From the IMG/VR virus record IMGVR_UViG_2643221865_000002: 64,000 bases of DNA; one strand, written 5' to 3'. Both the position numbers and the translations under genes were made by a program. The stretch comes from a virus. This document shows positions 25,423 to 61,090 of the stretch, one piece after another. The stretch's first letter is position 1. Each line of letters opens with the position of its first letter. Under the pieces are notes generated by a model, which was given only the letters and a program-made list of their open reading frames with translations, searched no databases and was not told where the DNA came from.

Positions 25423-25430
25423 GCCGGAAA

Positions 25431-25447: not shown

Positions 25448-25458
25448 TGCACGGCCCT

Positions 25459-25475
25459 CCCCGCCACATGTCTCC
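25459..25475 (+). promoter_or_regulatory. conserved motif copy in plus orientation (CCCGCCACATGTCTCC, N10 before ATG 25481)
   Basis: Its orientation follows the plus-strand HAD gene. Confidence 0.5.
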
Positions 25476-25480
25476 CGGCC

Positions 25481-26140: not shown

Positions 26141-27964
26141 CTACTGAGGCGGGATGATCGCCGGCGCCGTCATGCCAGCCCTTCCCCACATCCACACGTT
26201 CCCGCTGGTGTCCAGAGCTGTGACCCTGTACCCGCTGACGTCCACAGACGCGAACGTTGTCGTTCCGACGGTGTCCAGCAGCCTCGGCGTGCCCTGAGTG
26301 AGAGGAGAAGCCCCGAACCCGAGAGACAGACCAGAGCTGTTGTTCGTGCCCCACGTGTAGATGTGTCCGTCTTCGTCGAGGGCTGCGGCAGCTGAGGAGC
26401 CTACTGAGAACTGCTTGAACTTCGCCGATGGGTACGCGCCGAGGTTAGCGGCAACGGGCGTGGCGGAAGTGACGGATGCCACTCCGGTCCCTGCCTTGCT
26501 GAGGCCGGCGATGCCCCACGTATAGAGCTTGCCGTCTGTTCCGATGGCGATGGCCTGGTACCCGTAGATCTCCACCGACTTAAAGGTGGTGGTCCCAAAC
26601 ATCTGTGTGGGCACGGAGAGGGTCACGACTCCAGATCCGCCGAGAACGCTCCCCTGGTCGGACTTGCCCCACATCCAGATGTGGTCGTCGACGTCGAGGC
26701 CGATCCCGACTGCTCCGGTTGCGTATGTCTGAGTGGCGCTGATGTGCTTGAACTTGACCGATGTGGGGATCTTTGTCGGCTTTACTGTGTCCGAGGCGGC
26801 GCTACCCAGAAGGTTTCCTGTGCTGGAGCCCCACGAGTAGATGTCGCCGTCCTGGGACAACGCGATCGCAGCGCTGGTGGCAGCAGCTACTTCCTTCCAC
26901 TTCACGCCGGCGCCGATCTGCGCGGTCCGGGACGCCGGTGTGTTCACAGGTTGTCCGTCGCCGAGGGCGGTTCCACCCTGGCCCCACATGTCTCCCTGGC
27001 CGTCAATGATGTAGGTCCTGCCGGCTCCGTTGGTGGAGATCGCAACGGCCGGCTTCGTGAAGTTCGTCAGCTGGGTGATCACGTCGGTGGTCCCCGACTT
27101 CACGTACTGGTAGATCCGGCCGCCCTGATCGCTGACGATCTCAACGTCGGTGTTGTTTCCGGCGAACACCGGGTCGGTGGTGATGATGATCTGGCCGGCG
27201 ACCGGGGAGCTCGTCCCGCCGTCGTTCGTGGCGGTGAGGGTGAAGTTGGAGACGCCGATCTGGTTCGGGGTCCCAGAGATGACGCCCGTGCTCGCGTCGA
27301 GTGCGAGTCCGAGCTTCGACAGGCCGTCAGCCGGCTGGACCGCGAATGTGAACACGGTCGGGCGGCCTGTCGCGGAGATCGTGACCGGACCCCAGACCTG
27401 CCCGACCTTCCCTGCGGGCAGAGTCGGGACCGTGAGAGTCGGGGCGATCGGGAGGACGGGCGGCGGGGGCGGCGGGGTGAAGTCGTCGCCAGGTAGCGCG
27501 ATTCCTGCGATGACGTCCTTCAGCGGACGGAGCAGTGGAGCGCAGAAGTCTGCGTGGGTGCTGTCGGCTTCGGACTTGTAGTCGCGAACCGTGGGGCTCT
27601 GGGAGGTGGTGTAGAAGAAGCTGCCGTCCCCTGACCTGATCGCTGCGACCCAGCAGGTGCCGTCCGTGTCGGTGGTGACGTCGAGGGTTGTCTTGTGCTC
27701 GATCAGGTCGACCGGCGCGGTTGACAGGATCCCGTACTCCAGATACTTCCCGCCAGCTTCCGGCAGCATCTTGGCGAGGGACTCAGCGACCCGCACGGTG
27801 GCGAGGTCCTGCTTCGCGGCTTCGCGCTGCGACCAGGGAATCACACCGAACACGGTTGCGGAGATGATTGACCCGACGAGAGCGATGACGATGACGCCGA
27901 CCATGATCGATGCGAGATCGATCGCAGCTCGGGGGTTCCGGAGGAGTCGGAGAAGGCGAAGCAC
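26141..27964 (-). CDS. RCC1-repeat beta-propeller protein with pilin-like N-terminal anchor module (paralogous N-terminus to 20570..23728)
   Basis: GTG start. N-terminus MLRLLRLLRNPRAAIDLASIMVGVIVIALVGSIISATVFGVIPWSQREAAKQ. C-terminal repeats DIYSWG, HIWMWGKSDQGSVLGG, KLYTWG, HIYTWGTNNSSGL and NVWMWGRAG. Confidence 0.7.
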   Translation of the reverse strand: MLRLLRLLRNPRAAIDLASIMVGVIVIALVGSIISATVFGVIPWSQREAAKQDLATVRVAESLAKMLPEAGGKYLEYGILSTAPVDLIEHKTTLDVTTDTDGTCWVAAIRSGDGSFFYTTSQSPTVRDYKSEADSTHADFCAPLLRPLKDVIAGIALPGDDFTPPPPPPVLPIAPTLTVPTLPAGKVGQVWGPVTISATGRPTVFTFAVQPADGLSKLGLALDASTGVISGTPNQIGVSNFTLTATNDGGTSSPVAGQIIITTDPVFAGNNTDVEIVSDQGGRIYQYVKSGTTDVITQLTNFTKPAVAISTNGAGRTYIIDGQGDMWGQGGTALGDGQPVNTPASRTAQIGAGVKWKEVAAATSAAIALSQDGDIYSWGSSTGNLLGSAASDTVKPTKIPTSVKFKHISATQTYATGAVGIGLDVDDHIWMWGKSDQGSVLGGSGVVTLSVPTQMFGTTTFKSVEIYGYQAIAIGTDGKLYTWGIAGLSKAGTGVASVTSATPVAANLGAYPSAKFKQFSVGSSAAAALDEDGHIYTWGTNNSSGLSLGFGASPLTQGTPRLLDTVGTTTFASVDVSGYRVTALDTSGNVWMWGRAGMTAPAIIPPQ

Positions 27965-31851: not shown

Positions 31852-32598
31852 TCAGACCTGTTCGATCTTCCCGCCGCGGCTGGCGTGCCACAGTGCGACG
31901 TACCACCAGGAGAGGACCATGAAGATGAGGGTGACGATCGGTACCCATCCGCCTTCGCGGTGCATCGGCATCATGTCGAAGATCAGGGACAGCAGCCCCC
32001 AGATTGCGAGGACGCCGCCGAGGAAGAAGGCGGGAACGGCGAGGATCATCCGGTTGTTGTTCCAGCCGGCGAACGGGACGGCGATGACTCCGATCCAGAC
32101 AATCATCTGGGCGATTGACGAGCCGGCCATCAACGCGTCCCGGGTGGCGTCCTGGACCGGGTTCAGCAGCAGTTGGTAGTAGTACAGTCCGGCGCTGGAC
32201 AGGATGCCGGCGAAGAAGAACGCGGCGGCGATCGTCAGGTCGCGGGCTGACCCGGGTGGGAAGTTCCGCTGCTTCCACGAGGGGCGGGTGGCCGCCGGCA
32301 CCTGCTGCGAGGCCTGAGGTGCAGACTGCGCCGGCTGGTAACTGGGTGCCGAGGTGCGATCCGGGACGGGCTGACCTGTACGAGCTCGGCGGGCGAGACC
32401 GCGGTCGTACACCTTCCGGGCGTCCACGTCCCGCAGGATCGTGTACGCCTCGTTCACCTTCTGGCTCATCGTCGCACCGGCCTCACCGGCGCGGTCCGGG
32501 TGGTAGTGCCGGATCAAGGTGCGGTACGCGTCGACGATCTCACCATCGGTGGCGGTGTCGGCGACGCCCAGCGTCTCGTAATGGGTTGCTGCACTCAT
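31852..32598 (-). CDS. J-domain (DnaJ-like) membrane protein, 4 TM
   Basis: YETLGVADTATDGEIVDAYRTLIRHYHPDRAG...KVNEAYTILRD is a J-domain with an HPD motif. It is followed by four TM helices. Confidence 0.75.
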   Translation of the reverse strand: MSAATHYETLGVADTATDGEIVDAYRTLIRHYHPDRAGEAGATMSQKVNEAYTILRDVDARKVYDRGLARRARTGQPVPDRTSAPSYQPAQSAPQASQQVPAATRPSWKQRNFPPGSARDLTIAAAFFFAGILSSAGLYYYQLLLNPVQDATRDALMAGSSIAQMIVWIGVIAVPFAGWNNNRMILAVPAFFLGGVLAIWGLLSLIFDMMPMHREGGWVPIVTLIFMVLSWWYVALWHASRGGKIEQV

Positions 32599-32647: not shown

Positions 32648-33745
32648 TTAGCGGCCGGCTCGGGCTTCGGTCTTCTTCCAGTCGTTGGCGGTACCGGCTG
32701 CGACCTTCAGGAGCACCTGACCGTCTTCTGCCAAGACGAGGATCTCGTCGGTTGATGCTTTGGCCTCGCCGGGGAAGCGGAATCGATCGCCGGTGGACCA
32801 GTGCTCGACAACGTCGACCTTTCCGAAGTCACGGCACTTCACAACCTTGTAGGGGCCGTAGCCTCCACCGGTGCTGCCGAGGCGGAGTGCGTTTGCGAAC
32901 TCCCAGCTGCCGACAACACGGTGACGAGCAGTGTGGTAGCTGAGAGCTGCCATGCTCACGAGGAACCAGACGACAAGTGCAGCGAACACCAGGTGATACG
33001 CGCCTCCACCGAGACCCCACGCCCCGAACACGCCGGTGAACCAGATAAACCCGTAAACGAGGACGCCGCCGGCGCCGACGAGGACGGCGAACATCTGCAG
33101 ACAGCTGCTCATCCGCGTCCCGACGACGAACGCCATCGGGAGAATGAACACGGAAGACCAGGCGGCGAAGCCGGCGGCGTTGTGCCAGGACTCACCGATC
33201 TCGTCCGCGGGCAGGAGAAGGAAGAGGCCCCACGCGGCTGCGACCCCGGCAACGGCGAGGATGATCGAGATCAGGAGTCCCGGGATCCCGCGGGCAGGAA
33301 GGATGCCAGCGAGCAGCGACGGCTTCGGTCCGGCATCCGGGTAGATGGTGCCGGCACGCTTGACAGCCCACGGGTAGATGGGCTTCTCCGGCTCCGGGGC
33401 CGGCTTCGGCTTCTCCTGCTTCGGTGGCGACTGCTGGTAGTTGGGCTGCTCGTATCGGGGCTGCTCGTACCGCGGCTGCTCACGCTCCTGCTCGCGCTGC
33501 TGCTGCTCGTAACGCTCGTTCTCTTCCGCGATGACGAGCTTCCCGTCGTACTCTCGACGGCGGGCGTCATCTCGCAGGATGTCGTATGCGTGGTTTACCT
33601 TCGCGGCCATCGCTGCGCCGCCGGGGCCGGCGATGTCGGGGTGGTAGATCTTCACCAGTCGTTTGTATGACCTGATGATGTCCTCGGTGGACGCGTCGGC
33701 GGTGACGCCGAGGACGGTGTAGTGGGTCATCGTGTCAGTGGGCAA
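32648..33745 (-). CDS. J-domain membrane protein (HPD motif) with C-terminal small beta-rich domain
   Basis: HYTVLGVTADASTEDIIRSYKRLVKIYHPDIAG. A Q/E-rich linker is followed by TM helices. Start is TTG (MPTDTM) or the ATG 15 nt later. Confidence 0.75.
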   Translation of the reverse strand: MPTDTMTHYTVLGVTADASTEDIIRSYKRLVKIYHPDIAGPGGAAMAAKVNHAYDILRDDARRREYDGKLVIAEENERYEQQQREQEREQPRYEQPRYEQPNYQQSPPKQEKPKPAPEPEKPIYPWAVKRAGTIYPDAGPKPSLLAGILPARGIPGLLISIILAVAGVAAAWGLFLLLPADEIGESWHNAAGFAAWSSVFILPMAFVVGTRMSSCLQMFAVLVGAGGVLVYGFIWFTGVFGAWGLGGGAYHLVFAALVVWFLVSMAALSYHTARHRVVGSWEFANALRLGSTGGGYGPYKVVKCRDFGKVDVVEHWSTGDRFRFPGEAKASTDEILVLAEDGQVLLKVAAGTANDWKKTEARAGR

Positions 33746-33957: not shown

Positions 33958-35646
33958 CTAGCGGGCTTCTGCTTCGTCCTCGGTGACACCAGCAGCGAAG
34001 TCGTAGATCCAGGCGATGTTCTTCGCGTCGAGGTGGCGCATCGCACGGGTGACGGCGACGTACATGAGGCGCGCCTCCTCCGCCTTCAACGGCTTGAACT
34101 CGCCGGTCTCCTTGTCGATCTTCGGGTAGGGGAAGTCAGCGCCGATGCGGACGTGGCGCCACTCGAGCCCCTTCGACACGTGGGCGGTGGAGATGCTGAT
34201 GTCAGCCTGGTCAGCGGGGACGCAGGAGTCGATCGCGGCGATCACGTCGACGGCGCCGACCCGGACGATGGTGTTGATCATCGAGGCCAGGTTGGTGTTC
34301 TCGTCTGCGTCCTCGGAGGCGACGGAGTCGAGGACGTCCTGCCACTTCCGAAACCCGGCGAAGTCGGGGTGGCTGGTCCACCCGTTCTTGTCCAGGTCGA
34401 TCGCAGCCTGGGCGATGGAGCGGAGCTCGGCAGCCTTCTTCTCACCGGCGATGTTGACGTTCAGGCCCTGCTTCAGGAAGAAGAGCACTTCGTTCATCGC
34501 GCCACCGTTTGTGCGACAAATCACGGCATCCGGACGTCGGTCGGAGTGGCGGTCGGTGTGCACGGAGGCGCGCTTGCCCTCGGTTCCGCGAACACGGAGA
34601 TCCGCGCCGAGGGTCTCCAGGAACACGTTGGCGAAGTCGGCGATCTCCTCACCGAAACGGAACGACTGAGTGAGGGCGATCTTCTCCCCCTCGAACCCGT
34701 CGAGGGCGTCGACCGCGCCACGCCATTTGTAGATCGCCTGGTGCCGGTCGCCGACGACGATGACCTGTGCACCCTTCTGGGCGAGGACGACGCTGGTGGT
34801 GACAGGGTCGGAGTCCTGCGCCTCGTCGTACATGATGTAGTCGAACGGCAGCTGCGGCTTGGACAGCGCCCACATCTTCAGGTAGTGGGAGTGGGTGACG
34901 GGGAGCACACCGCTGGCCATGCGAACCTCGGCGTACGGGTCGGCGGGGATCTCGAACCCGTTCTCGTCGTACTCGACGACGACACCGCCGCCGTCGACGA
35001 CCAGCAGGTCCTGCCAGTAGATCTTCGCCCAGCGGACGACCTCGTCGATCAGCTGCTGGGTGGCGTTGTCCTCGACCTCCTCGGCATTGGCGAGCTGGAC
35101 GACGTCGTTGCCGATGATCGCCTTCGCCTTGTCGGACACCGAGAACAGGAATCGGGCGGGCAGCTGAACGTGCTGACGGCCGATCTCCTCATCCGCTGTG
35201 GTGCAGAACCGGTTGACGGTGTCGATAACGATCTTCATGGCAGAGTTCGCGGCGACCTTGTGGACCATCTTGTAGCCGGGGATGTCGATGCGGTCCATCT
35301 CCAGCGCCTTGGCGCTGTCGGTGGCGTTGAGTCGCTTGTCCAGGCGTCCTCGGCGGGGTGCGCCGTGGGTGGCGTAGGCGAGCGAGTGAGCGGTGCGGGC
35401 GTCCACGTTGGTGCCCTTGAACTTCTCCGCTGCTTCCAGTGCGATCGCGCGGTTGAACGCCAGGTAGAGGCCGCGACGCTCGGGGCGTCGGCGGGCGATC
35501 ATCTGCAGGGTGGTGGTCTTGCCTGTGCCTGCGAGGGCGATGATGACGAAGTTCTCGTTCGTGTCGGCCAGGTCCAGAGCGATCTGCTGCTCGGGGGTGG
35601 GCTGACGCTCTCCGGTGAGAAGCGGCGCGGGTGCGGTGATGGTCAT
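33958..35646 (-). CDS. UvrD/Rep/PcrA-like superfamily I DNA helicase
   Basis: Walker A LAGTGKTT, motif II IMYDEAQD, motif III VGDRHQAIYKWRGA, motif V STAHVSKGLEW and motif VI VAVTRA. The ATG is 8 nt after a motif copy; the ORF-track GTG start lies inside the motif. Confidence 0.8.
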   Translation of the reverse strand: MTITAPAPLLTGERQPTPEQQIALDLADTNENFVIIALAGTGKTTTLQMIARRRPERRGLYLAFNRAIALEAAEKFKGTNVDARTAHSLAYATHGAPRRGRLDKRLNATDSAKALEMDRIDIPGYKMVHKVAANSAMKIVIDTVNRFCTTADEEIGRQHVQLPARFLFSVSDKAKAIIGNDVVQLANAEEVEDNATQQLIDEVVRWAKIYWQDLLVVDGGGVVVEYDENGFEIPADPYAEVRMASGVLPVTHSHYLKMWALSKPQLPFDYIMYDEAQDSDPVTTSVVLAQKGAQVIVVGDRHQAIYKWRGAVDALDGFEGEKIALTQSFRFGEEIADFANVFLETLGADLRVRGTEGKRASVHTDRHSDRRPDAVICRTNGGAMNEVLFFLKQGLNVNIAGEKKAAELRSIAQAAIDLDKNGWTSHPDFAGFRKWQDVLDSVASEDADENTNLASMINTIVRVGAVDVIAAIDSCVPADQADISISTAHVSKGLEWRHVRIGADFPYPKIDKETGEFKPLKAEEARLMYVAVTRAMRHLDAKNIAWIYDFAAGVTEDEAEAR

Positions 35647-35650
35647 AAAC

Positions 35651-35664
35651 ACCACATGTGCGGA
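35651..35664 (-). promoter_or_regulatory. conserved motif copy, N8 before helicase ATG, preceded by CGAAACC
   Basis: Sequence match. Confidence 0.55.
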
Positions 35665-35683: not shown

Positions 35684-36682
35684 TCAGCGTGCTCGGAAAA
35701 GATCCTTCAGTTCCGACCAGGTGACCGTCGCTGTCGCTGGGACAGAGGAGAGCACTTTCCCGAACTTGTTCAGCAGCACCCACATTCCGGGTTCCACCTT
35801 GGCCATGATCATCTTCAGGTTGAAGCGAGCGCCGTTCTCGGGATGCTCGGCGAGCCAGTAGTCGCCGCCGGCGTGTTCGAGAACCTTCCACGGCCCGGTC
35901 CCGTCCCGAACACCTTCGAACATCAGCCGTTCCAGCTTCTGAGCGTCGGTGGCTCGGGCCCGGTACAGCGACCATCGCCACCCGAACAGGTACCCGGCTG
36001 CGAGGAGGGCCCCTTCCACGGGGATGACCCAGGCGGCGCTGCTCAGGTAGAACGCTCCGAACAGCAGGGACAGCGGGACTGTGACCCAGGCGACGACGTA
36101 GATGGCCAGCGCAGCGTACCGGGTGATGAGGCCGAGCCATCCGCGTCCGGCCAGAAGGATCGCCGGCGCCCCGAACACCCACATGTAGCAAGCCCAGGCG
36201 GTTGCGGAGATGTACGCGTCCCGACGGAAGTCAAGGTCGGTGTCGACGGCGGATTCGTACCAGCGGAAACCCCATGCGAAGATGCCGGCCACGGCGACGA
36301 AGGCGACTGCTGCGAGGAAGTACTTCCCGGATCCGGGCGGGACCAGGCGGACGCGAAGCGGGAGCCGCCGCCAGGTGCCGGTCATGTCCGGGCGCGGCGC
36401 CGGCGCCGCAGGTTGGGGTGCCTGTTCCGGGCGTGGTTCAGGCGCGGCGCTCGTGGTGCTGGATGCGGGACCCTGCACACGGTCACGGTCGTAGAGACGT
36501 CTGGTGTCGGGGTCGCGAAGCACCGCGTACGCTTCGTTGAGCTTCTGGGACATCGAAGCGCCCGTCGTGCCGGCGCGGTCGGGGTGGTAGTGCCGGATCA
36601 GGGACCGGTACGCCTTCCCGATTGTGTCGTCGTCGGCGTCCTCGGGGATCCCGAGGAGTTCGTAGTGTGTGGTTGCGCTCAT
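35684..36682 (-). CDS. J-domain membrane protein (HPD motif), multi-TM, C-terminal small domain
   Basis: HYELLGIPEDADDDTIGKAYRSLIRHYHPDRAG. Confidence 0.75.
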   Translation of the reverse strand: MSATTHYELLGIPEDADDDTIGKAYRSLIRHYHPDRAGTTGASMSQKLNEAYAVLRDPDTRRLYDRDRVQGPASSTTSAAPEPRPEQAPQPAAPAPRPDMTGTWRRLPLRVRLVPPGSGKYFLAAVAFVAVAGIFAWGFRWYESAVDTDLDFRRDAYISATAWACYMWVFGAPAILLAGRGWLGLITRYAALAIYVVAWVTVPLSLLFGAFYLSSAAWVIPVEGALLAAGYLFGWRWSLYRARATDAQKLERLMFEGVRDGTGPWKVLEHAGGDYWLAEHPENGARFNLKMIMAKVEPGMWVLLNKFGKVLSSVPATATVTWSELKDLFRAR

Positions 36683-36694
36683 CCGGAGGAAACC

Positions 36695-37819
36695 TTATCT
36701 CGCGGGCGTGTCCTCTGCAGAATCCCGGCGTTTCCGGGTGCCTGCATTCTCTTCACGTCGGCGGTTGTTCACCCATGCTGTGGAGCTGCGGCCGGGTGCG
36801 GTCGCGACGATCACTGCTTCGCTGTTCAGCACCACCCACGTGTTCCTTTGAGCTCTCCCCCACGTGTCGATGCTGAACTCGCGGCCGTCGGTGGATTGCA
36901 CCAACGCGGAGGTTCCGTCGATCGCTGTGACGAGGAACGGCCCTCCGTTTTCTGCTGCGGCAGCGGAGGCTTTCAGCAGCTCCCATCGGTGCACCAGACC
37001 GCGGTCGGTCGAGAGGGCCCTCCACGATCTGATGCCAGCGCCGGCGAGGAACCATCCGGCGACCGCGGCGATGGTGGCAGCCGCGGCGGAGGGGGAGACG
37101 ACGTCGATCACCCCGACCAGTGAGAGGACGGCGCCGGCGACAGGCGCGAGTTGGGCGAGGGCTGCCCACAGCTTCAACCGCCGTTGTGCGGCGCCGATGA
37201 TTCCGATGATCGCAGCGAGCACGACCAAGGTGGTGTCATCCGGTGCGGGGAGGGTCGCAACGAACACGGATGAGCCGAGAATGACGGTTGCTGCTCCCGC
37301 GAGCACGTATCCCCTGTTCGCCCATCCGGCTGGGAAGAGTCGCTGGGTGCGGGTCGGAGGTTCAGGCATCTGAGGTGCCGCAGGTTCTGCTGCGACCGGT
37401 CGGTGCAGTGGGATGGGGGCCCACGCCGGCTGGGCTGGGCCTGTCAGCTGGGGTTCAGCGGCGGCCGGCTGACGCGACAGAGGGATCGTCGACCATGGCG
37501 ACGAAGGGCGTGGGGTTGTCTCGGCTGCGGCGTCGGTTCGATCCAACCGCCATTCCGGTGCGACCTTCACAGCGGGCGCGTGATTCGCCGGCGGTTCGAC
37601 CGACTCGACAGGCGCAGCGTTCGCCTGTGCGGGGAGGATCTTCGAGTCGTAGTCGTGGCGGCGTTCTGAGTTGCTGAGGACGTCGTAAGCGAACTCGACC
37701 ATGCGGGCATGCTCGTCTTCGCGGAACCCGCCCTGGCGCAGCAGGTCGCGCGCAGCGGTCAGGTCCGCGGCGGTGGCGTCACGGTGGACGCCGAGGATGT
37801 CGTACAGGGTCTCAGCCAT
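36695..37819 (-). CDS. degenerate J-like domain membrane protein (HPD lost)
   Basis: The N-terminus LYDILGVHRDATAADLTAARDLLRQ is J-like but lacks HPD. It has a Pro/Ala-rich linker, 4 TM and a C-terminal domain. RBS GAAAGG. Confidence 0.6.
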   Translation of the reverse strand: MAETLYDILGVHRDATAADLTAARDLLRQGGFREDEHARMVEFAYDVLSNSERRHDYDSKILPAQANAAPVESVEPPANHAPAVKVAPEWRLDRTDAAAETTPRPSSPWSTIPLSRQPAAAEPQLTGPAQPAWAPIPLHRPVAAEPAAPQMPEPPTRTQRLFPAGWANRGYVLAGAATVILGSSVFVATLPAPDDTTLVVLAAIIGIIGAAQRRLKLWAALAQLAPVAGAVLSLVGVIDVVSPSAAAATIAAVAGWFLAGAGIRSWRALSTDRGLVHRWELLKASAAAAENGGPFLVTAIDGTSALVQSTDGREFSIDTWGRAQRNTWVVLNSEAVIVATAPGRSSTAWVNNRRREENAGTRKRRDSAEDTPAR

Positions 37820-37846
37820 CAGAGCCTTTCAGCTATCGGTGCTGGG

Positions 37847-38503
37847 TCACGCGTTCGTGAAGTAGGTCCCTGTGACGGCGATGTCAGCCTCGGCGACCAC
37901 GTCGGCGACGTCAGCGACGCTGAGGATCACCTCAGCGAAAGCCAGGTGACCTGCTCCGGTGCGGCGGCCGGGGACGAGACGCGGTGCGGGCTGCCGCACT
38001 GCAGAGGAGTCCTCCTTCAGCTCGGTCAGCGACAGTCCACTCACCGGGCTGTACAGCAGGGCTGCGTACGCTTCAGCGTTGCTGTGGGCGAGCATGACAG
38101 CGTCGGCTCGGGCGACGCCGAGCGCGGCAGCAGCCACCACTGCGGAAGCGTGCGGAGTCAGGGTTGCCTCGACGACGGTGACGTCGTCCGAGTCGAACAC
38201 CCCGTTCTCCTCCAGCCAGCGCACGGCGGCTTCGATGTCAGCGGTCTCCACGTTCAGGGTGACGTCAGCGGTCCAAGTGCGGCCGAACTCCTCACGGAAC
38301 TTCGGGTCGGACAGCACCGGAGCGCGAACCAGCGAAGGCACGGACAGGGCGTCGTCGGTGAGGGAGTCGATGAAACCTCCCAGCTCCGCCTCGAGCTCCA
38401 GCTCGGACGGGCGCCCCGGGAAGCTCAGCCCGATCTGCAACGTCCACCGGTCGGCGTCGACGGTTGTGCGAGCGGAAGCGGAAACGATGATGTTGGTGCT
38501 CAT
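37847..38503 (-). CDS. hypothetical protein (possibly SIMPL/DUF541-like)
   Basis: Internal ATG 38501-38503 with RBS GGAGAA. The ORF-track N-terminal 48 aa are junk. Confidence 0.5.
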   Translation of the reverse strand: MSTNIIVSASARTTVDADRWTLQIGLSFPGRPSELELEAELGGFIDSLTDDALSVPSLVRAPVLSDPKFREEFGRTWTADVTLNVETADIEAAVRWLEENGVFDSDDVTVVEATLTPHASAVVAAAALGVARADAVMLAHSNAEAYAALLYSPVSGLSLTELKEDSSAVRQPAPRLVPGRRTGAGHLAFAEVILSVADVADVVAEADIAVTGTYFTNA

Positions 38504-38565
38504 GGGGTGGTTCTCCAAGATGGGGTTCTGCGGCTGGCAGCGTCTGCTGAGCCCGGACCCTGGAA

Positions 38566-38580
38566 GGACATGTGGCGAAG
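38566..38580 (-). promoter_or_regulatory. conserved motif copy (class 2)
   Basis: Upstream of 37847..38503. Confidence 0.5.
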
Positions 38581-38623
38581 CGCGGCCGGGCCGCGACCCC
38601 GGAACTGTGCAGAAGCGCCGACA

Positions 38624-38640
38624 TCCGCGCATGGAGGAGG
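38624..38640 (+). promoter_or_regulatory. conserved motif copy in plus orientation, N8 (=GGAGGAGG) before ATG 38642
   Basis: Sequence match. Confidence 0.55.
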
Positions 38641-38641
38641 T

Positions 38642-39562
38642 ATGCACGACTCCGCCGACCCCACGCTCACCCTCCAGCAGGAGACCGGACGACCTTCAGA
38701 CAGGTTGGTCCGGTGGCTGCTGTGGCCGGTCGCGCTCACCCTCGTCGTCATCATCGCGAACGCGTTCGTGATCTCGTTCCAGTCCCAGGTTGACCTGGCG
38801 ATCCTCGCCCGCATCCACAAGGACGTCGCCTTCGGCTGGCCGATCATCGTGGACGGCACCATCGTCGTGTCCACGTTCGCGGCGTTCATGCTGCACCGCC
38901 ACGGCGTCCGGGTGTCCTGGTACCCGTGGGCGATCCTGATCCTGTTCGGGGCCGTGTCCATTTGGGCGAACGGCATCCACGCCACCGGAGCGGACGTGTC
39001 CCTGCCGGAGCTGTTCCTCGTCGGCGCCGTCCCCGCGGTCGGCATCCTGCTGTCCGTCCACCTGTTCGTGATCGTCATCGCACACCACAACCGGCCCGAC
39101 CCGGTCCGGCCGCAGAAGGCGTCACCCGCCGCCGAGCTGCCTGCCGCGGCCGCTCCGGCGCACCGCGCCCCGCAGGCTGTCGTCACCGACGCAGCATTCA
39201 CAGACGCGGCCGTCACTGAGCTTCCCAAACCTCCCCGTCCAGTCGCCGTGGAGCTGCCTGCCGCGCCGGCGCCGGAACTGGCTGCCAGCAACGCACACCC
39301 AACCTGGGTGCCCGAGACGGTCCTCCCGAAAGCTGCACCGTCTCCGCAGCCTGCCTCGAAGCCGGCTCCGAAGGAGACGAAGAAGGCTGCAGCCCCTCGC
39401 ACCACCACGAAGCCGATGACCCGCGCTGAAGCTGGCGCGAAAGTCCGGGAGCTCGAAACCGCAGGGACCCAGGTCACCGCGGATGACATCAGCTCCTGGA
39501 TGAACGTGTCACCGGCTCGTGCCGCAACGATCCTCACTCAGATCCGGCAGGAAGCCGTCTGA
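38642..39562 (+). CDS. 4-TM membrane protein with Pro/Ala-rich linker and C-terminal HTH-like domain
   Basis: RBS GGAGGAGG. A sense-orientation motif copy is spaced exactly 8 nt before the ATG. The C-terminal segment RAEAGAKVRELETAGTQVTADDISSWMNVSPARAATIL is HTH-like. Confidence 0.65.
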   Translation: MHDSADPTLTLQQETGRPSDRLVRWLLWPVALTLVVIIANAFVISFQSQVDLAILARIHKDVAFGWPIIVDGTIVVSTFAAFMLHRHGVRVSWYPWAILILFGAVSIWANGIHATGADVSLPELFLVGAVPAVGILLSVHLFVIVIAHHNRPDPVRPQKASPAAELPAAAAPAHRAPQAVVTDAAFTDAAVTELPKPPRPVAVELPAAPAPELAASNAHPTWVPETVLPKAAPSPQPASKPAPKETKKAAAPRTTTKPMTRAEAGAKVRELETAGTQVTADDISSWMNVSPARAATILTQIRQEAV

Positions 39563-41086: not shown

Positions 41087-41092
41087 GCCTCC

Positions 41093-41106
41093 CTCATGTG
41101 CGGACC
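41093..41106 (-). promoter_or_regulatory. conserved motif copy, N8 before ATG
   Basis: Upstream of 40769..41086. Confidence 0.55.
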
Positions 41107-42301: not shown

Positions 42302-43744
42302 CTACTCGGCCGTGTTGCCGACCTTCACGTCGATGGACGCGGGAAGCTCCACCTTCGGGAGGGTGACGGTGGCGGCTGCGGAGTGACCGGCAGCCTTGCC
42401 GGCTGCGGTTCCGCCGATGACGGAGCCGAGCAGGTCCTTCAGGCCGATGCCCATGGTGGAGGACAGCATCGAGTCGACCTCGGTCATGCCGGACACGACG
42501 TTCTTCGCCAGCTGACCGGCGCCGTCGGTGGAGATGACGGTGAGGTTGTCGATGTTGGACATCGGAGCGGCGAGCTCACGGGCGATCAGCGGGAGCGCCT
42601 CGATGACCTTCAGCTGGAGCAGCGCCTCGGACTGCTGGGCGACAGCCTCAGCTGCAGCCTTCGTCGACTCGGCCTCAGCCTGACCCTTCGCGTAGATGGC
42701 CTTCGCCTCAGCCTCACCCTCAGCCTCAAGGGCTGCAGCGGCAGCCATGCGGGAGTCGCGCTCAGCGTGGGCGGCGATGAGGTTCTCGTCAGCCTTCGCC
42801 TGGGCGATCTTCGTCACACGGTACGCCTCAGCGTCAGCGACGGCGCGGACCTCGGACTCCAGCTCAGCGGCACGCAGCGAAGCGCGCTTTTGGGCGGTGA
42901 TCTCCTGCTGGGCGACGACGGCCTGCTGCGACTGCGCCTCGGCGAGCGGGCGAGCGGCTGCAGCCTCAGCGGCAGCCTTGTCGGTTGCCTTCTGCAGGTC
43001 AGCCTTGCGGAGAGCGAGGGCGTTCTCAGCCTCGGCGATGGACTGCTCAGCGGAGACGGCAGCCTCGCGGGCCTCCTTCTTCGCGATCGACTCGGCGATC
43101 TCGGCGGTCTTGCGGACCTTCGCCTGCTCGGCGCGGCCGAGGTCCTCGATGTAGCCGTTGTTGTCGCTGATGCCCTTGATCTCGAACGAGTCGACGTCCA
43201 GGCCCTGGTTCTCCAGCGACTGGCGGGCGATGTCGAGCACCGCAGCGGACAGCTCGTCACGCTTCGTGATGATGGTGAGGACGTCGGTGGCGCCGACGGA
43301 CGAGCGAAGCGAACCGGACAGCACCTCCAGGGCGAACCCGTCGATGTTCTTGTCCTGGCCGAGGAAGCGCTGCGCGGCGGCGCGGATCGCGGTCTCGGTG
43401 GATCCGACCTTGACGATGGCGACAGCGTCGACGTTCATCGTGATGCCGTTGTTCGTCTGAGCTACCGCCTGGATGTCGATCGCGCGGGAGCGGAGGGAGA
43501 TCTTGTGCGCCTTCTGGAAGAACGGCATGATCCAGACGCCCTGGCCGTGGACGACACGCTGGCCGGACTGCTCCGCCTCGATGCCGTTGACGAGCTTGCG
43601 CTTGGAGCGCTTGCCGGTGACGACGATCGCCTCGTCGGGCGAGACGTTGCGGTACAGGACCTTGGCGTAGATGAAGATGATGACGCCGATGACGACAAGG
43701 GCGAAGATGATGCCGAAAGCGGGGCCGAACAGGAAGTCGAGCAA
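42302..43744 (-). CDS. flotillin-like SPFH/band-7 protein
   Basis: N-terminal TM, SPFH domain and a long Ala/Glu-rich coiled coil. TTG start with RBS AAAGGAGAA. Confidence 0.75.
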   Translation of the reverse strand: MLDFLFGPAFGIIFALVVIGVIIFIYAKVLYRNVSPDEAIVVTGKRSKRKLVNGIEAEQSGQRVVHGQGVWIMPFFQKAHKISLRSRAIDIQAVAQTNNGITMNVDAVAIVKVGSTETAIRAAAQRFLGQDKNIDGFALEVLSGSLRSSVGATDVLTIITKRDELSAAVLDIARQSLENQGLDVDSFEIKGISDNNGYIEDLGRAEQAKVRKTAEIAESIAKKEAREAAVSAEQSIAEAENALALRKADLQKATDKAAAEAAAARPLAEAQSQQAVVAQQEITAQKRASLRAAELESEVRAVADAEAYRVTKIAQAKADENLIAAHAERDSRMAAAAALEAEGEAEAKAIYAKGQAEAESTKAAAEAVAQQSEALLQLKVIEALPLIARELAAPMSNIDNLTVISTDGAGQLAKNVVSGMTEVDSMLSSTMGIGLKDLLGSVIGGTAAGKAAGHSAAATVTLPKVELPASIDVKVGNTAE

Positions 43745-43808
43745 GCGACTTCTCCTTTCAAGAGGGAACGTGCGAGTGGGTCACACCGGGCGGTGTGGCA
43801 TGCGGGTG

Positions 43809-43837
43809 GCATGTGGCGGTACCTTCATGTGCGGCAT
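43809..43837 (-). promoter_or_regulatory. two adjacent motif copies (gcatgtggcggt and cttcatgtgcggcat)
   Basis: Upstream of the flotillin gene. Confidence 0.5.
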
Positions 43838-43931
43838 CCGGTGGATTCGCTGGCGTGAGCCTCCGACGGCCGGGGCGCGCGAAAATCTCTAGTTGGGTGC
43901 TGCGAAAATCCCAGGTAGCGAGCTGGGAAGC

Positions 43932-44465
43932 CTAGCTCGACGTCGTGGGTTCCAGTCCGCGCGCTCCGCGGAGCTCGGCGAGTTCCGCCTCGAGCTCAGC
44001 AACACGGGTTTCAGCGGCGATCGCTCGCCCTTCCGCTTCCAGTCGCGCTGCGTGCGGAGTGATGCCGGTCTTCCGCTGGACGGTGAAGGTGTACAGGGAC
44101 TCATCGTCCGGGTAGATGATGTCGGTTTCGACGTAGTTGGTGCCGCCGACGATCCTGAACCAGCGGTGGATGAGCTCCGCGAGGACGAGGGTGGCGCCTT
44201 GGGTGTCTTCGAGGGTGACTTCGATCTCCCCGTCCCTGATCGACTGGCGATGCAGGATCATGTCCTCACGGCTGATCTGGTTCGCCTTCCGGCGGCCGGT
44301 GACGATGGGTCCAAACCCACCCTCCGGGGCGATGACTCGGATGGTGTCGCCGTCGGCGGCCATCATCGTCTCGCCGGTGCCATAGATGCGTTCGATGGCG
44401 CGGCCGATCTCCTCCATCGCAGTCATCGGCATGGGGAGGCTGAATGCGGCTACGGGCTTGCCCAT
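43932..44465 (-). CDS. hypothetical protein; possible NfeD-like OB-fold partner of flotillin
   Basis: Internal ATG with RBS GGAAAG. It lies immediately upstream of the flotillin gene. The ORF-track N-terminal extension (MSGPPPPPPPP) is read through a C20 tract from the motif ATG. Confidence 0.45.
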   Translation of the reverse strand: MGKPVAAFSLPMPMTAMEEIGRAIERIYGTGETMMAADGDTIRVIAPEGGFGPIVTGRRKANQISREDMILHRQSIRDGEIEVTLEDTQGATLVLAELIHRWFRIVGGTNYVETDIIYPDDESLYTFTVQRKTGITPHAARLEAEGRAIAAETRVAELEAELAELRGARGLEPTTSS

Positions 44466-44493
44466 CTCTGCTTTCCAATCGGTTCGGTGTGGC

Positions 44494-44513
44494 GGGGGGG
44501 GGGGGGGGGGGGG
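44494..44513. repeat. homopolymeric G20 tract (C20 in gene sense) between motif and RBS/start of 43932..44465
   Basis: Counted directly: ggc + 20 g + tcc. Confidence 0.8.
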
Positions 44514-44514
44514 T

Positions 44515-44530
44515 CCAGACATGTGGCAGC
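44515..44530 (-). promoter_or_regulatory. conserved motif copy (class 2) immediately followed (gene-sense) by the C20 tract
   Basis: Upstream of 43932..44465. Confidence 0.5.
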
Positions 44531-45909: not shown

Positions 45910-46338
45910 TCACGAGAGGGAATGGACGGTTTCGATGCGACCGGCGAGGACCTGGATGTCGTCGATGGTTCCGGTGTGCCGTTTCGGTCCGAGCACCAGC
46001 GACCAGGAGGTGCCGATGACGGTGACGTGCATGGGCGGGGTGGTGTCCGGCCATGAGAGATGCCAGGCGCCGGAAGGGTCGTCGGCGACGTCAGCTGCGT
46101 CGAACACGTCTGCGTCGAGGAGGGCGACGAGGGCCCTGGCGGTGTCTTCGGAGGTGACGGCGACGTCGGTGCTGGCAGGAGCCTGCACGGAGTTTGCGGC
46201 GGCTTCAGCGATCGCAGCTTCGACTTCGGCGGCGGCGGTTGCTGCACGGCGTTCCCGCCATCCGTCGATCTTCTCCCGGTTCCAGTGGTACACGGTCATG
46301 CCGATGGCTACGAAGATGAGTAGGGCTGAGATCTCCAC
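45910..46338 (-). CDS. N-terminally membrane-anchored protein
   Basis: GTG start with RBS GGAAGG. A motif copy lies at 46378-46390. Confidence 0.5.
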   Translation of the reverse strand: MEISALLIFVAIGMTVYHWNREKIDGWRERRAATAAAEVEAAIAEAAANSVQAPASTDVAVTSEDTARALVALLDADVFDAADVADDPSGAWHLSWPDTTPPMHVTVIGTSWSLVLGPKRHTGTIDDIQVLAGRIETVHSLS

Positions 46339-46377
46339 CCGTGCTGCCTTCCGATCGGTGTTGCTGGTCGGGGAGGA

Positions 46378-46390
46378 GGCATGTGGCGGG
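46378..46390 (-). promoter_or_regulatory. conserved motif copy (class 2)
   Basis: Upstream of 45910..46338. Confidence 0.45.
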
Positions 46391-46402
46391 CGCCGGCCGG
46401 GG

Positions 46403-46827: not shown

Positions 46828-47280
46828 CTATCCCTCGTAGGTCCACAGTTCCAGGTCGCAGCGGTACTCCGCAGCCACCTTCTCCAGCACCGGGAGGGCG
46901 TCCTCCCAGACGAGGCCGCCGATACCGCAGCCGATCTGCGGCAGGGCGATGCGGGTGATGCCGTTCTGGTCGGCGTGCTGCAGTGCGGCGCGTGTGCCGG
47001 TCTCCAGCCAGTCGAGGGAGGCGTTCGGGCCTGTCTGGTCCTGGGAGGCGATGTTGTACACCGCGGGGAGCTCCTCGGTTGCCGGCCAGAAGAACATCCC
47101 ACCGGGGATGAGGGCGCCGGAGCGGCACACCTTCGCGTACGCGTCGAACATGCCGGCGAACCGGAGACGGAACACGTTCGCGATGCCGGCGTGCATGGCG
47201 CCGACAACGTTCACCCCCTGCCCGAGTGCGGGTGCGTCAGAGGTGAAAAGGTCGCCGGACTTGTGGGTCACTGTGGTCAT
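46828..47280 (-). CDS. macrodomain protein (ADP-ribose binding/hydrolase-like)
   Basis: GQGVNVVGAMHAGIA and IALPQIGCGIGGLVWEDAL resemble the macro motifs (VNAAN..GGGV and IAFP.ISTG.YG). The ATG is 8 nt after a motif copy. Confidence 0.55.
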   Translation of the reverse strand: MTTVTHKSGDLFTSDAPALGQGVNVVGAMHAGIANVFRLRFAGMFDAYAKVCRSGALIPGGMFFWPATEELPAVYNIASQDQTGPNASLDWLETGTRAALQHADQNGITRIALPQIGCGIGGLVWEDALPVLEKVAAEYRCDLELWTYEG

Positions 47281-47284
47281 GACA

Positions 47285-47299
47285 CCTACATGTGCGGAC
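47285..47299 (-). promoter_or_regulatory. conserved motif copy, N8 before macro gene ATG
   Basis: Sequence match. Confidence 0.55.
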
Positions 47300-49222: not shown

Positions 49223-51424
49223 TTACTCCGCTGCCACCTTGCGGCGGCGGACCATGAGGGCTGCGCCGCCGAGGAGCATCAGAGCGGCAACACCGAGGAA
49301 CGGTGCGCCCTCGAAGCCGAGGCCGGGGATGACATCGGTGCTGTCACCGGCTGCGGCGACTGTGATCTCGGAGATGAGGTACTCGACACCGTCCTCGTCC
49401 ACGAAGTACAGGTGGTGCGTACCAGCGGGGGTGTTGAGGGGAATCGTCACACTGGCCTCGACCTTGCCGTCGGAGTCGGCGGTGAACGAACCTAGGGTGA
49501 CCGGGTTGGACCTGAGGACGACGGTGACATCCGAATCGGGCGCGAAGCCGCTTCCGCTGACGGTGATCGTCGCGCCGGCGTTTGTCGTCCCCTCTTCCAT
49601 CCCTCCGGGCGGGTTGACGGACACTGGCGGCCTCACAGCGACCCCAAACCGCTTCGCCATGGAGCCCTCATCGTTGAACGCGGTGACTGTGAAGTCGTAC
49701 AGTCCGTACTTGGTGGGCGTGCCGGACAGTACACCGGACTTGCTGAGGGTGATACCGGCGGGCAGGTCGCCGGAGCTGACCTCCCACTGGACGTCCTTGT
49801 CAGAAGTCAGCTGCTTCGAGTAGGGGACACCCTGCTGCATCTTGCCGAGATCCCTAGTGGTAGTGGTGATCACCGGGTTGCTCTTGCCGCCGTCGTGGTG
49901 ACGGGTGACTGTTCCGCGGTAGACCTGCTCGTCGGTGTCGTCGGTCTTCTCCTGGCTGCCGATGACAGCGAAGTCGTAGTATCCGCCGTACGCCTCGTCA
50001 CCGTACTCAACGGTGCCGGACAGGGTTGCCGTTTCACGGTTGAAGGTCAGACCTGCGGGCAGGGTGCCGTCCGTCTGCCAGAAGTCCACGTTGGTGCCGG
50101 TGAACGTGTGGTTGATCTTCTGTCCGGCGGTCAGGTTGCCGAGAGCGTAGCCGTCGACGACGGGCTTGCCCTTCTTGACGTTGATGGAGAAACCGTTGAA
50201 CACGCGGGTCTCACCGGCGGCCGGGTACCGCGTGTTGGACGCGATGACGTTGAAGCTGACGTTCCCGACCTTCGTCGGGGTGCCAGTGATCATGCCGACG
50301 CCGTGCTTGTACTTGAAGGTCAGACCGGCGGGAAGGGTGCCTTCCAGGGTGAGCGTCTCCTCGTAGTTCGCGACGATCGCGGCCGAGTACTCCTCGCCGA
50401 CGCGGGCGGTACCAGTGAACTCGGTCTGCTCGCGCGGGAAGTTCGGCAGGCCCTGCAGGGCAGTGCCGTAGAGAGTCTTCTCGTACTGCTGACCGCCGAC
50501 CGTTGCGTTCAGGGTGATGCCCCAACCGCCGTAGGTCGTGAACAGACCGTCGAGGTAGAACTTGCCGCCCTGCTTGACGATGGACAGGTCGTAAGTGTCG
50601 GAATCGCTGCCGAACGTGACGTTGGTGGCTCCGGGAACGTTGATCAGTTCATGGGCCTGCGCGCCCTGCTCGAAGGTGAACGTCTCGCTCATCCACGGGT
50701 CTTCCGGCTGCGCCTCAGCGATGTGGATGGTGAACGTGTGGGGGGTTCGGAGAGTCCAATCCGGTCCGACCGCCACCAGGGTGAACGTGTAGTCGCCCGC
50801 CTTGGTTGGGGTGCCGAAGATGGCTTTCCGTTCAACGTCGAGGTTGAGTCCGGGCGGGAAGTTGAAGCTACCGTCGTTCTCTTCGACCGACATGGAGCCG
50901 TTCCAGTTCGTCGCTTCGAGCTGGAAGTAGTACGGGGAGCCGACCGTTCCGGACGGTTCTGTGAGGGAGAGCCACACCGGGTGGTAGTCGGGAGCCTCGA
51001 CCCTGGTGACGGTGCCGGTGAACGTCTGGTCGGACGTCCCCTCAGCGCCGTCGGAGGCGGTGACGGTGAACGCGTACGCGCCGGGGACGTCGGCGACGGT
51101 GCCGGTGAGGTGGCCGGTGCTGTCGACGTTCAGGCCGAGGTCTGCGACGCTGGCGTCCGCGGCGGCGTAGGAGACGGCGCCGGCCGCCATCAGGTAAGAG
51201 TCGACGGTGTCGCCGACAGTCAGGTCGCCGACGGCGTTGGGCTGGGACATCCACGTGATGCCGGTGCCGCTACCGGGGCCGCCGGGGAGGCCACCGGGGC
51301 CGCCGGGGAGGCCACCGGGGCCGGAGGCCATTGCGGGAGTGGCCGCGAAGATCGTGGTCGCAGCGACGGCTGCTGCGGCGAGGGCGGCGCCGAAACGGCG
51401 ACCGCGGGTCAGAGTGCTACTCAA
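49223..51424 (-). CDS. cell-surface protein with putative Ig (He_PIG-like) repeats, Tat-like signal and C-terminal TM anchor
   Basis: TTG start after RBS GGAAGGA. TRGRRFGAAL is a twin-arginine-like signal. Repeats GTPTK(A/V)G.Y.F.(V/L). The C-terminus LGVAALMLLGGAALMVRRRK is a TM anchor. Confidence 0.55.
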   Translation of the reverse strand: MSSTLTRGRRFGAALAAAAVAATTIFAATPAMASGPGGLPGGPGGLPGGPGSGTGITWMSQPNAVGDLTVGDTVDSYLMAAGAVSYAAADASVADLGLNVDSTGHLTGTVADVPGAYAFTVTASDGAEGTSDQTFTGTVTRVEAPDYHPVWLSLTEPSGTVGSPYYFQLEATNWNGSMSVEENDGSFNFPPGLNLDVERKAIFGTPTKAGDYTFTLVAVGPDWTLRTPHTFTIHIAEAQPEDPWMSETFTFEQGAQAHELINVPGATNVTFGSDSDTYDLSIVKQGGKFYLDGLFTTYGGWGITLNATVGGQQYEKTLYGTALQGLPNFPREQTEFTGTARVGEEYSAAIVANYEETLTLEGTLPAGLTFKYKHGVGMITGTPTKVGNVSFNVIASNTRYPAAGETRVFNGFSINVKKGKPVVDGYALGNLTAGQKINHTFTGTNVDFWQTDGTLPAGLTFNRETATLSGTVEYGDEAYGGYYDFAVIGSQEKTDDTDEQVYRGTVTRHHDGGKSNPVITTTTRDLGKMQQGVPYSKQLTSDKDVQWEVSSGDLPAGITLSKSGVLSGTPTKYGLYDFTVTAFNDEGSMAKRFGVAVRPPVSVNPPGGMEEGTTNAGATITVSGSGFAPDSDVTVVLRSNPVTLGSFTADSDGKVEASVTIPLNTPAGTHHLYFVDEDGVEYLISEITVAAAGDSTDVIPGLGFEGAPFLGVAALMLLGGAALMVRRRKVAAE

Positions 51425-51622
51425 AGGTGGATCCTTCCAGATAGGTGGGGTGGTGCATGTTGGGCGGTGATCCGCCGATGGCTTCATTCGCAGTGCAGCG
51501 CAGCACCAGGCAAATCCGGCGCTCCGACATTGCCACGTCGGTCATCTAGGTGTGCGGTGACGCACAGACCGTGCCGTGCACTGGGGGTGCGAGTGCGGCC
51601 TCCAGACGGTGGGCCTCGGCGA

Positions 51623-56582: not shown

Positions 56583-57911
56583 CTAGGCGTCGAACTCGCA
56601 GAGGTAGCGGACGCGGACCTGGTTCGTATCGAAAACGATGGCTTCGTGGTTCCGCACTCCAGCGGTCCCCGGCTTCACGTTGATGGAGTTCCACGGCTTA
56701 CCGAACTTGTTGACCGTGGAGTGGGCTTTCGGCCAGTCGGAGTAGTGAGAGGGACGGTACTCGGATCCCATCGCTACGTCGTTGAGGAGCATGAAGCAGT
56801 TGTTGTCTCGGCCGCCGGAGGTCCAGTAGCCATTCGAGTAGTTGAGGCTCTTCGTAGAGTCGAGCGAAAGATACAGACCGTCGCCGAACATGCGCCCGGC
56901 GATCTGGATACCTGAACCTGACCGCGGCGGGACGAACAGCCCCTTCTGGAGGATGGAGAGCAAGTTTGCGGCGCGGGTCCCGTGCCACATCTGCTGCTCG
57001 TTTCGGATCTCCGCAGCGATCCTCTTGTAGGTGGCGGCTCCGACCGGATCGACAAGCTCGAAGACATGCTTCAGGTTCAACTTGGCTGACGTGTGCATGC
57101 CGTTCTTCGTCTTCGCATACCGCTCTTCGATCCGCTTGAAGACGGCCCCGCCGTCGGCGACGGCGCGAACCTTGTACTTGAAGAGGTTGTCGTATTCGTT
57201 GCCGTCGACGTCGTCGATCGCTGCGGTGGTGGCAGCGGCGAGCTGGGTGTTGAAGAACTGGACGGAGTCGCGGAGGGAGTCGAGCAGCTCGTGCTGCTTC
57301 TGGAAGGTGTTGTCGCGGTTGAAGAATGTGGATGCCCATCCGGCGTTGCGGCCGATGTTCTGGGGGACGAGGGTGAGGTAGTCCTCCAGCAGCCGGGTGC
57401 TGGAGGTGTCTTTGACGCCGCCGGCCTGTTCGATCTGCGTGAGGAGGCCGCGGGCTTCGCTGATGGAGTAGTTGGTGATCAGGCCGAGCGGAGTCTTCAC
57501 CTGGCCGCTGGTGTCGACGGTGATCTTTCCGCCGGAGAGGGTGGCGATGTCGTGGGCGTTCACACGACAAATACGCTCGATCAGGTCAGCGACTCGGGTG
57601 TCGGTGCGGGCCTTCCCCTTCGTCAGGGCAGTCTTCGCGATCGTGGTGATCTGCGTGTTCGCGGCCACTGACGTGGTCGCTGTGGGCGGGGCTGCGATCG
57701 CGACCTTCTTGTAGCCCTTCCGCTCCTTCGCGTAGACGGCGTTGTCGAAACCGAGCCGTCCGGTCTTCTCAATAGACATCTGACCGTCGGCGCCGACACG
57801 ACCCCAACGCTTCGTCACGGTGATCCCATCCGAGGACAATTTCACCTCGTAGAACTTGTTGTTGTTCGCTTGGGAATCCACGTAAATCAGCATCGTTGTC
57901 GTCTCATTCAT
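56583..57911 (-). CDS. poly(ADP-ribose) polymerase homolog: WGR domain + helical domain + PARP catalytic domain
   Basis: WGR: KFYEVKLSSDGITVTKRWGRVG. Catalytic: MWHGTRAANLLSILQKGLFVPP, GRMFGDGLYLSLDSTKSLNYS, HEAIVFDTNQVRVRYLCEF (the H-G-S/T...Y...E signature of PARP1). The ATG is 8 nt after a motif copy. Confidence 0.8.
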   Translation of the reverse strand: MNETTTMLIYVDSQANNNKFYEVKLSSDGITVTKRWGRVGADGQMSIEKTGRLGFDNAVYAKERKGYKKVAIAAPPTATTSVAANTQITTIAKTALTKGKARTDTRVADLIERICRVNAHDIATLSGGKITVDTSGQVKTPLGLITNYSISEARGLLTQIEQAGGVKDTSSTRLLEDYLTLVPQNIGRNAGWASTFFNRDNTFQKQHELLDSLRDSVQFFNTQLAAATTAAIDDVDGNEYDNLFKYKVRAVADGGAVFKRIEERYAKTKNGMHTSAKLNLKHVFELVDPVGAATYKRIAAEIRNEQQMWHGTRAANLLSILQKGLFVPPRSGSGIQIAGRMFGDGLYLSLDSTKSLNYSNGYWTSGGRDNNCFMLLNDVAMGSEYRPSHYSDWPKAHSTVNKFGKPWNSINVKPGTAGVRNHEAIVFDTNQVRVRYLCEFDA

Positions 57912-57913: not shown

Positions 57914-57930
57914 CACCTACATGTGCGGAC
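57914..57930 (-). promoter_or_regulatory. conserved motif copy, N8 before PARP ATG, preceded by CCGAAAAC
   Basis: Sequence match. Confidence 0.55.
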
Positions 57931-61006: not shown

Positions 61007-61023
61007 TGTGCGGTCCGCACATG
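61007..61023. promoter_or_regulatory. palindromic head-to-head motif pair TGTGCGG-T-CCGCACA, with the plus-orientation copy upstream of the collagen gene
   Basis: Seen directly. It sits in the divergent region between 60956(-) and 61091(+). Confidence 0.5.
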
Positions 61024-61090
61024 AAAGTAAGGAAGCAAGCCGCGACTGCGCGGACCCCCACCCCTCCCCCACTGAACGGACAGCACAGCT

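Follow-up and report, generated by a model that had tools for sequence, protein, structure and literature searches.

Slipped-strand mispairing at the C-stretch of Bordetella fim2 and fim3, and at the tracts of Neisseria porA and opc, alters both tract length and expression. The G/C homopolymers of these loci adjoin promoter elements, either between the elements themselves or in the interval from an activator site to the -10 box, where they set promoter geometry. The mycobacterial glpK 7C tract is a coding-region homopolymer that acts as a frameshift switch through reversible slippage. Variable G/C tracts have also been described in Cutibacterium acnes, where 72% of them are intergenic, mostly upstream of genes, and where promoter tracts affect expression; they are mostly ~5-13 nt long, and their variation was documented across 90 genomes with Sanger checks (PMC4746626). 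In addition, reiterative initiation is known at start-site homopolymers, such as those of pyrBI, codBA, upp and pyrG (PMC8812562); tracts of the pyrBI type are 3-8 nt long and respond to NTP pools.

Here, we analyzed a poly(C) tract upstream of an orphan gene of Leifsonia sp. Leaf264, contained in a 64-kb window (the whole stretch of DNA under study, 64,000 nt). Like the C. acnes tracts, it is an actinobacterial intergenic G/C run upstream of the 5' end of a gene, in the promoter/5' UTR, for which modulation of expression rather than of reading frame would be expected, and it raises the same worry about sequencing artefacts. Unlike them, it measures at least 20-25 nt, is a singleton, lies on a strain-specific island and comes from one strain. 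The tract shares with the Bordetella and Neisseria loci a G/C homopolymer adjoining promoter elements, but it is located downstream of the predicted start, and its motif is not a sigma-70 promoter. As in the pyrBI-type cases, the homopolymer would lie at the start, running from +2 of the predicted transcript, yet a length of at least 20 nt is outside the described range, and the start is in this instance a predicted one. Finally, the tract resembles glpK 7C in being a C/G run in an actinobacterium without indel repair, but glpK 7C sits inside coding sequence and acts by frameshift, whereas the Leaf264 tract lies outside supported coding sequence.

The tract and its neighborhood

Positions 44494-44513 of the plus strand are exactly 20 G, corresponding to C20 in gene sense on the minus strand, and both the count and the coordinates given in the earlier note are correct for the window. 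Every other homopolymer in the 64 kb is at most 6 nt long, and TRF reported the tract as the sole period-1 array, with no second simple-sequence locus in the window. A first-order Markov model of the window predicted ~53 G/C runs of at least 6 nt against 2 seen, so such runs are avoided by the genome or the island. The same model predicted 1.5e-6 G/C runs of at least 20 nt, and the tract is real and far above chance. With 20 G in the window and no fewer than 25 C in an independent assembly, it is a perfect simple-sequence repeat long enough to exceed the threshold for slippage.

Read in gene sense, the stop codon of a 252-aa gene (44545) is followed by a 17-nt spacer, the motif GCCACATGTC (44527-44518), TGGA, the tract, GCCACACCGAACCGATT, GGAAAG, CAGAG and the ATG at 44465. 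The tract thus starts 31 nt past the stop codon, 4 nt downstream of the motif, and lies 28 nt upstream of the ATG. The 252-aa gene (KQO98311.1; 44545-45303, minus strand) and the 177-aa orphan gene that begins at this ATG (43932-44465, minus strand) carry consecutive GenBank protein ids. The latter is the only gene plausibly affected by the tract; its product, which ends in a C-terminal coiled coil, is identical to KQO98310.1/WP_055905477.1 of Leifsonia sp. Leaf264, encoded on a 701-kb contig.

The start of the 177-aa gene at 44465 is the one annotated by NCBI, and two homologue families (47-48% identity; one from Microbacterium and one from a Logan contig) start 3-5 residues before a conserved AAFSLP motif. 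GC content at codon positions 1, 2 and 3 of the minus-strand genes ranged from 0.65-0.72, 0.43-0.50 and 0.79-0.89, respectively, which marks these genes as real. This coding-type pattern is present from 44465 onward only, the 57-nt "extension" toward an ATG further upstream being non-coding, and the plus-strand ORFs that cross the tract are spurious.

Among 5.8 billion proteins, the 177-aa protein has just two homologue clusters, both of them from prophages, a different setting in which the upstream gap is 17 nt and no tract is present; homologues in Microbacterium lie in prophage early regions that lack flotillin. The protein carries neither an NfeD domain nor any other Pfam domain, and a profile search of the PDB returned nothing. 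Its AlphaFold model has a mean pLDDT of 60 and was not used for fold search. For the 252-aa protein, no relative was found in genome_contigs, and viral contigs yielded only a 39-residue partial match. The right-flank DNA is absent from the metagenome contigs searched, and searches of phage and plasmid DNA detected no relative of the locus, which appears to be unique to the Leaf264 strain. When 185,579 species were scanned for the motif with C14 behind it, 12 matches came back, roughly as many as chance alone would produce, and each was unrelated or junk; the motif-tract architecture is therefore not recurrent.

The surrounding island has a GC content of ~65% throughout the window. Four minus-strand genes encoding N-terminal DnaJ (J) domains (31852-32598, 32648-33745, 35684-36682 and 36695-37819) cluster around a UvrD-like helicase gene (33958-35655), an unusual concentration on one island. 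Large proteins that are probably surface-exposed or secreted are encoded at 61091-63520 (plus strand) and at 49223-51487, 26141-27964, 560-2572 and 20570-23743 (minus strand); they comprise an 809-aa protein with collagen-triple-helix repeats, a He_PIG Ig-domain protein, two RCC1-repeat proteins and one with BNR/sortilin-like repeats. A 1665-aa fusion of a methyltransferase with an SNF2/DEAD helicase (12352-17349, minus strand) and a DUF2637 protein (37709-39562, plus strand) are also present. Methyltransferase-helicase fusions and DUF2637 proteins are both typical features of conjugative elements or large plasmids in actinobacteria, and the island may itself be mobile, either integrated or plasmid-like. 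A bacterial PARP with WGR, PARP_reg and PARP catalytic domains (56583-57911, minus strand) and a Macro-domain protein (46828-47280, minus strand) form a putative writer/eraser pair for ADP-ribosylation; Leaf264 is named in a survey of bacterial PARPs (PMC5966428).

The locus in two assemblies

Two Logan contigs from ERR1103913 match the window with 100% identity over flanks of 5.8 kb and 5.2 kb, and from this identity over ~11 kb we infer that ERR1103913 is Leifsonia sp. Leaf264. Logan is an independent k=31 assembly, built from 31-mers with singleton k-mers dropped and the graph simplified by Minia3 (PMC12424806). In it, the locus is split into two separate contigs, each terminating at the tract. 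The promoter-side contig ends in CACATGTCTGGAC-GGCG-C25, that is, in GCTGCCACATGTCTGGAC followed by GGCG and 25 C (TCTGGAC-GGCG-C25), and the gene-side contig starts with C23-GCCACACC, with the longer flank GCCACACCGAACCG. Counted from the promoter side, after an extra GGCG, the tract accordingly has at least 25 C; counted from the gene side, it has at least 23. These four bases before the tract are missing from the GenBank sequence, so that the window reads TCTGGA-C20-GCC where Logan reads TCTGGACGGCG-Cn-GCC. When positions 5790-5820 of the promoter-side contig (L001) and 1-23 of the gene-side contig (L005) were compared with 44491-44516 of the window, the missing GGCG and the shorter tract were the sole difference between GenBank and Logan.

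Because Logan uses 31-mers, a uniform tract of up to 29 nt would have been bridged. The contig break has one of three causes: a tract longer than ~29 nt, several tract lengths among the reads, or a collapse of read quality within the tract. Whichever of these applies, at least 25 consecutive C were seen repeatedly. The true tract in Leaf264 is probably at least 25 nt long, with a length that varies among reads, and the 20 nt without GGCG in GenBank probably represent an assembly collapse, the deposited Leaf264 sequence being probably wrong at this point; the collapse may have been k-mer-limited.

The two assemblies differ exactly at the tract, and "exactly 20" and "in frame" are therefore properties of one assembly and not robust ones. 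The tract-adjacent flank, the count of 20 and the in-frame relation seen in the window are probably not the true state of the genome. This caution is the main practical value of the comparison, since arguments that rest on either property are untrustworthy. The proposal that the tract is prone to slippage fared better, in part: two assemblies of one strain give different lengths (20 versus at least 25 and 23), with contigs breaking at the tract, but library or sequencing stutter, or a loss of quality, would give the same picture. A slippage-prone leader tract is plausible.

Promoter-like motif, predicted start and leader

That the tract separates a recurrent promoter-like motif from the RBS of the 177-aa gene, as proposed earlier, was borne out. 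The class-2 motif GCCACATGNC occurs in 13 copies in the window versus 0.87 expected, a number reached by no shuffle, and each copy lies upstream of a same-strand ORF. All 13 share a CACATG core with an invariant ATG. Four copies have an ATG that follows the first C of CACATG by exactly 16 nt and is not preceded by a Shine-Dalgarno sequence, and one of these four leaderless starts agrees with an independent gene call. Position-specific preferences recur in the 12 other copies at the same distance: a purine occupies offset 16 in 12/12 and a pyrimidine offset 15 in 10/12, and offsets 13-14 are G-rich. A pyrimidine at -1 followed by a purine at +1 is the usual start-site signature, and the class-2 motif behaves like a genuine, promoter-like element with a predicted start site 16 nt downstream.

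For the copy next to the tract (GCCACATGTC; 44518-44527, minus strand), the predicted start falls on 44509 in the window version; in that of Logan, it falls on the G of GGCG that immediately precedes the tract. The Logan version fits the offset pattern (G13, G14, C15, G16), whereas the window version has C at all four positions, which lends independent support to GGCG being authentic. With the predicted start at offset 16 from the motif, at or just before the tract, we infer that the tract begins at +2 of the predicted transcript; a reiterative promoter has a homopolymer of at least 3 nt at or next to the start, and here the tract would lie at +2 of a start predicted from motif statistics. A consensus scan identified no sigma-70 promoter and no intrinsic terminator, and no -10-like element was found from the tract to ATG 44465.

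Elsewhere in the window, at 25420-25483, two divergent class-2 motifs occupy a 58-nt intergenic region (25423-25480), each 16 nt from its own ATG (25422, minus strand; 25481, plus strand) and neither accompanied by a Shine-Dalgarno sequence. The 58 nt leave no room for anything else, and the region is a putative compact divergent pair of leaderless promoters.

The remaining 5' leader of the 177-aa gene, GCCACACCGAACCGATTGGAAAGCAGAG (44466-44493, minus strand), contains the RBS GGAAAG at 44471-44476 and is paralogous to the leader of a 142-aa gene (46336-46369). The 142-aa gene lies two genes upstream and is preceded by a cassette of class-2 promoter and 34-nt leader that has no tract (46336-46391, minus strand; motif at 46385). 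With the tract removed, the leader of the 177-aa gene measures 32 nt from +1 to the start codon and aligns end to end with this 34-nt leader, at a score reached by 0/2000 and 0/5000 shuffles. The two proteins are unrelated while their leaders align, which argues for reuse of a promoter-leader cassette. The tract looks like a pure insertion of at least 20-25 nt right after +1 in an otherwise matching ~30-nt leader, and the cassette evidently works without it. Leader RNA folding was no better than that of shuffled sequence, with the RNA around the tract predicted to be unstructured, and Rfam returned nothing meaningful.

We also considered whether the tract had expanded from CCTCCTCCCC, a C-rich segment of the paralogous leader. 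This was dropped because the Logan flank and the offset-16 rule place that segment upstream of the start, with the tract inserted after +1.

A second family, the class-1 motif TCCGCRCATGNRGG(TG), has 10 exact copies in the window versus 0.01 expected, and ~25 with looser matching. Its sites lie on the minus strand (e.g., 57916-57929, 47285-47298, 41091-41104 and 17093-17106) and on the plus strand (e.g., 5686-5699, 38624-38637 and 61015-61024), always upstream of same-strand genes; seven have an ATG 14 nt after CACATG. Many copies show a GAAAC-like block ~16 nt upstream of the TG (e.g., at 45882, 35663, 10427 and 3941), an arrangement that resembles an ECF-type bipartite promoter. A search of viral contigs for the exact motif gave 5 single matches, consistent with chance, and the motif probably marks an island-specific regulon. 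The promoter-like motif families of the island are arguably a more interesting lead than the tract.

Possible consequences of tract length

The reading we favor, with modest confidence, is that the tract is a genuine poly(C) run inserted at about +2 of the predicted transcript of one orphan prophage-type gene, right behind an island-specific promoter motif of the leaderless type, that it is slippage-prone, and that any effect is confined to the 5' leader. Replication slippage would have created the tract and would go on changing its length. MutSL is missing from many Actinobacteria, and indels of 1-2 bp are beyond the repair capacity of NucS (PMC11551767). With MutSL generally missing and small indels left by NucS, a run this long would not be kept at a fixed length, and the avoidance of runs elsewhere in the window fits a lack of indel repair. 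Given its place between the predicted start site and the RBS, a longer or shorter tract would alter only the 5' leader of the 177-aa mRNA, and not the reading frame, the promoter spacing or flotillin. RNA polymerase would start on a homopolymeric template prone to reiterative initiation, giving a poly(C) 5' end that could recruit Rho, poly(C) being the best-known Rho activator. The likeliest outcome would be a graded, mostly negative effect on the yield of 177-aa mRNA rather than an ON/OFF switch. Such an effect may have been selected for, or may be a merely tolerated slippage expansion on an accessory island.

The alternative that survives best, although we consider it unlikely, is adaptive phase variation, in which slippage by +/-1 would reversibly switch the 177-aa gene and flotillin through a poly-proline isoform or through the spacing between promoter and RBS. 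A long perfect tract adjoining a promoter-like motif, with lengths that differ between two assemblies, counts in favor of such a switch, and promoter and leader G/C tracts that change expression provide precedents (PMC4746626). In the window version, moreover, ATG 44522 lies 57 nt from ATG 44465 and in frame with the downstream ORF, and from this the earlier note had derived an N-terminally extended isoform toggled by the tract. That frame relation holds in the window but is lost with the C25 of Logan, where the distance becomes 67 nt and ATG 44522 is out of frame. The ATG itself was rejected as a start codon, being the invariant core ATG of the motif and lying upstream of the predicted transcription start. 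The NCBI form and both homologue families start at 44465, and the extension is neither conserved nor annotated and lacks a coding GC pattern; the repeat is thus placed outside the coding sequence, and the poly-proline isoform finds no support in the sequence.

Nor does the tract appear to separate promoter elements. It lies downstream of the start site, which is predicted rather than mapped, and would alter leader length instead of promoter geometry, contrary to the suggestion that it sets promoter spacing. Contingency-locus organisms usually carry many simple-sequence loci, and the absence of a second one in the 64 kb also speaks against a switch of this kind.

The claimed extension of phase variation to flotillin, and of a flotillin partnership to the 177-aa protein, did not hold up either. 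The flotillin gene (Band_7 and Flot domains; 42302-43744, minus strand), which is outside the feature, has a TTG start after GAAAGGAG and begins 187 nt beyond the 177-aa gene. In the intergenic region (43745-43931, minus strand), AUUUUC follows a weak hairpin, and beyond it come two motifs, one of class 1 (43825-43834) and one of class 2 (43808-43817); by virtue of these motifs flotillin appears to have its own promoters. Folding of the region after the 177-aa gene was no better than that of shuffled sequence. A flotillin-NfeD operon pairs flotillin with an NfeD domain in a conserved neighbor, and the 177-aa gene shows neither feature: its product has no NfeD or other Pfam domain, its homologues occur without flotillin, and the nearest flotillin relative, a 71%-identical gene on the Curtobacterium plasmid pCPAA3 and the sole match in the phage and plasmid searches, shares no neighbors with the window and has no such gene beside it. 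An adaptive phase switch is unproven.

The flotillin leader also contains a short tandem repeat at 43790-43817 (minus strand), ATGCCACCCGC / ATGCCACACCGC, reported by TRF with a period of 11. The repeat overlaps the class-2 motif and has GCCACACCG in common with the leader downstream of the tract.

Slightly less credible again is a fixed element that works without mutation, by loading Rho between the 252-aa and 177-aa genes, by forming a G-quadruplex roadblock on the template, or by CTP-sensitive reiterative initiation. The position of the tract 31 nt past the upstream stop codon with no intrinsic terminator between, the predicted lack of RNA structure around it and the standing of poly(C) as the best-known activator of Rho speak for such an element, and start-site homopolymers define the setting in which reiterative initiation occurs (PMC8812562). 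However, the paralogous leader works without a tract, the architecture does not recur in the 185,579 species scanned, where the 12 matches were unrelated or junk, and the tract is far shorter than a typical rut site (60-80 nt).

We give a little less weight still to a selected device, in which a poly(C) of at least 25 nt, placed exactly at +2 of a leaderless-type promoter specific to the mobile element, would drive RNA polymerase into reiterative initiation or leave the mRNA with a poly(C) 5' end, and in which slippage, in an actinobacterium unable to repair indels, would stochastically tune or silence the gene. If true, no longer start-site homopolymer switch would have been described, and it would unite slippage of both kinds, mutational and transcriptional.

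Least probable of all, and by our estimate remote, is a sequencing or assembly artefact, in which poly-G reads or a chimeric de Bruijn join created a long homopolymer that does not exist: the exact run length of 20 is also a common minimum k-mer size (a conjectural link), the two assemblies disagree, and in other draft genomes long poly-C/G runs often turn out to be junk at the end of a contig. Against this, a long C-run appears in both assemblies with one orientation and one pair of unique flanks, these flanks are collinear (stop, motif, tract, leader, RBS, gene) and of normal sequence rather than low-complexity junk, and both adjoining genes have consecutive GenBank protein ids.

To our knowledge, Microbacteriaceae are not noted for contingency loci. 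Should this tract prove variable in vivo and influence expression, the family would gain a leader-borne hypermutable tract of unusual length, and with it a natural test case for the effect on initiation of a start-site homopolymer of at least 20 nt.
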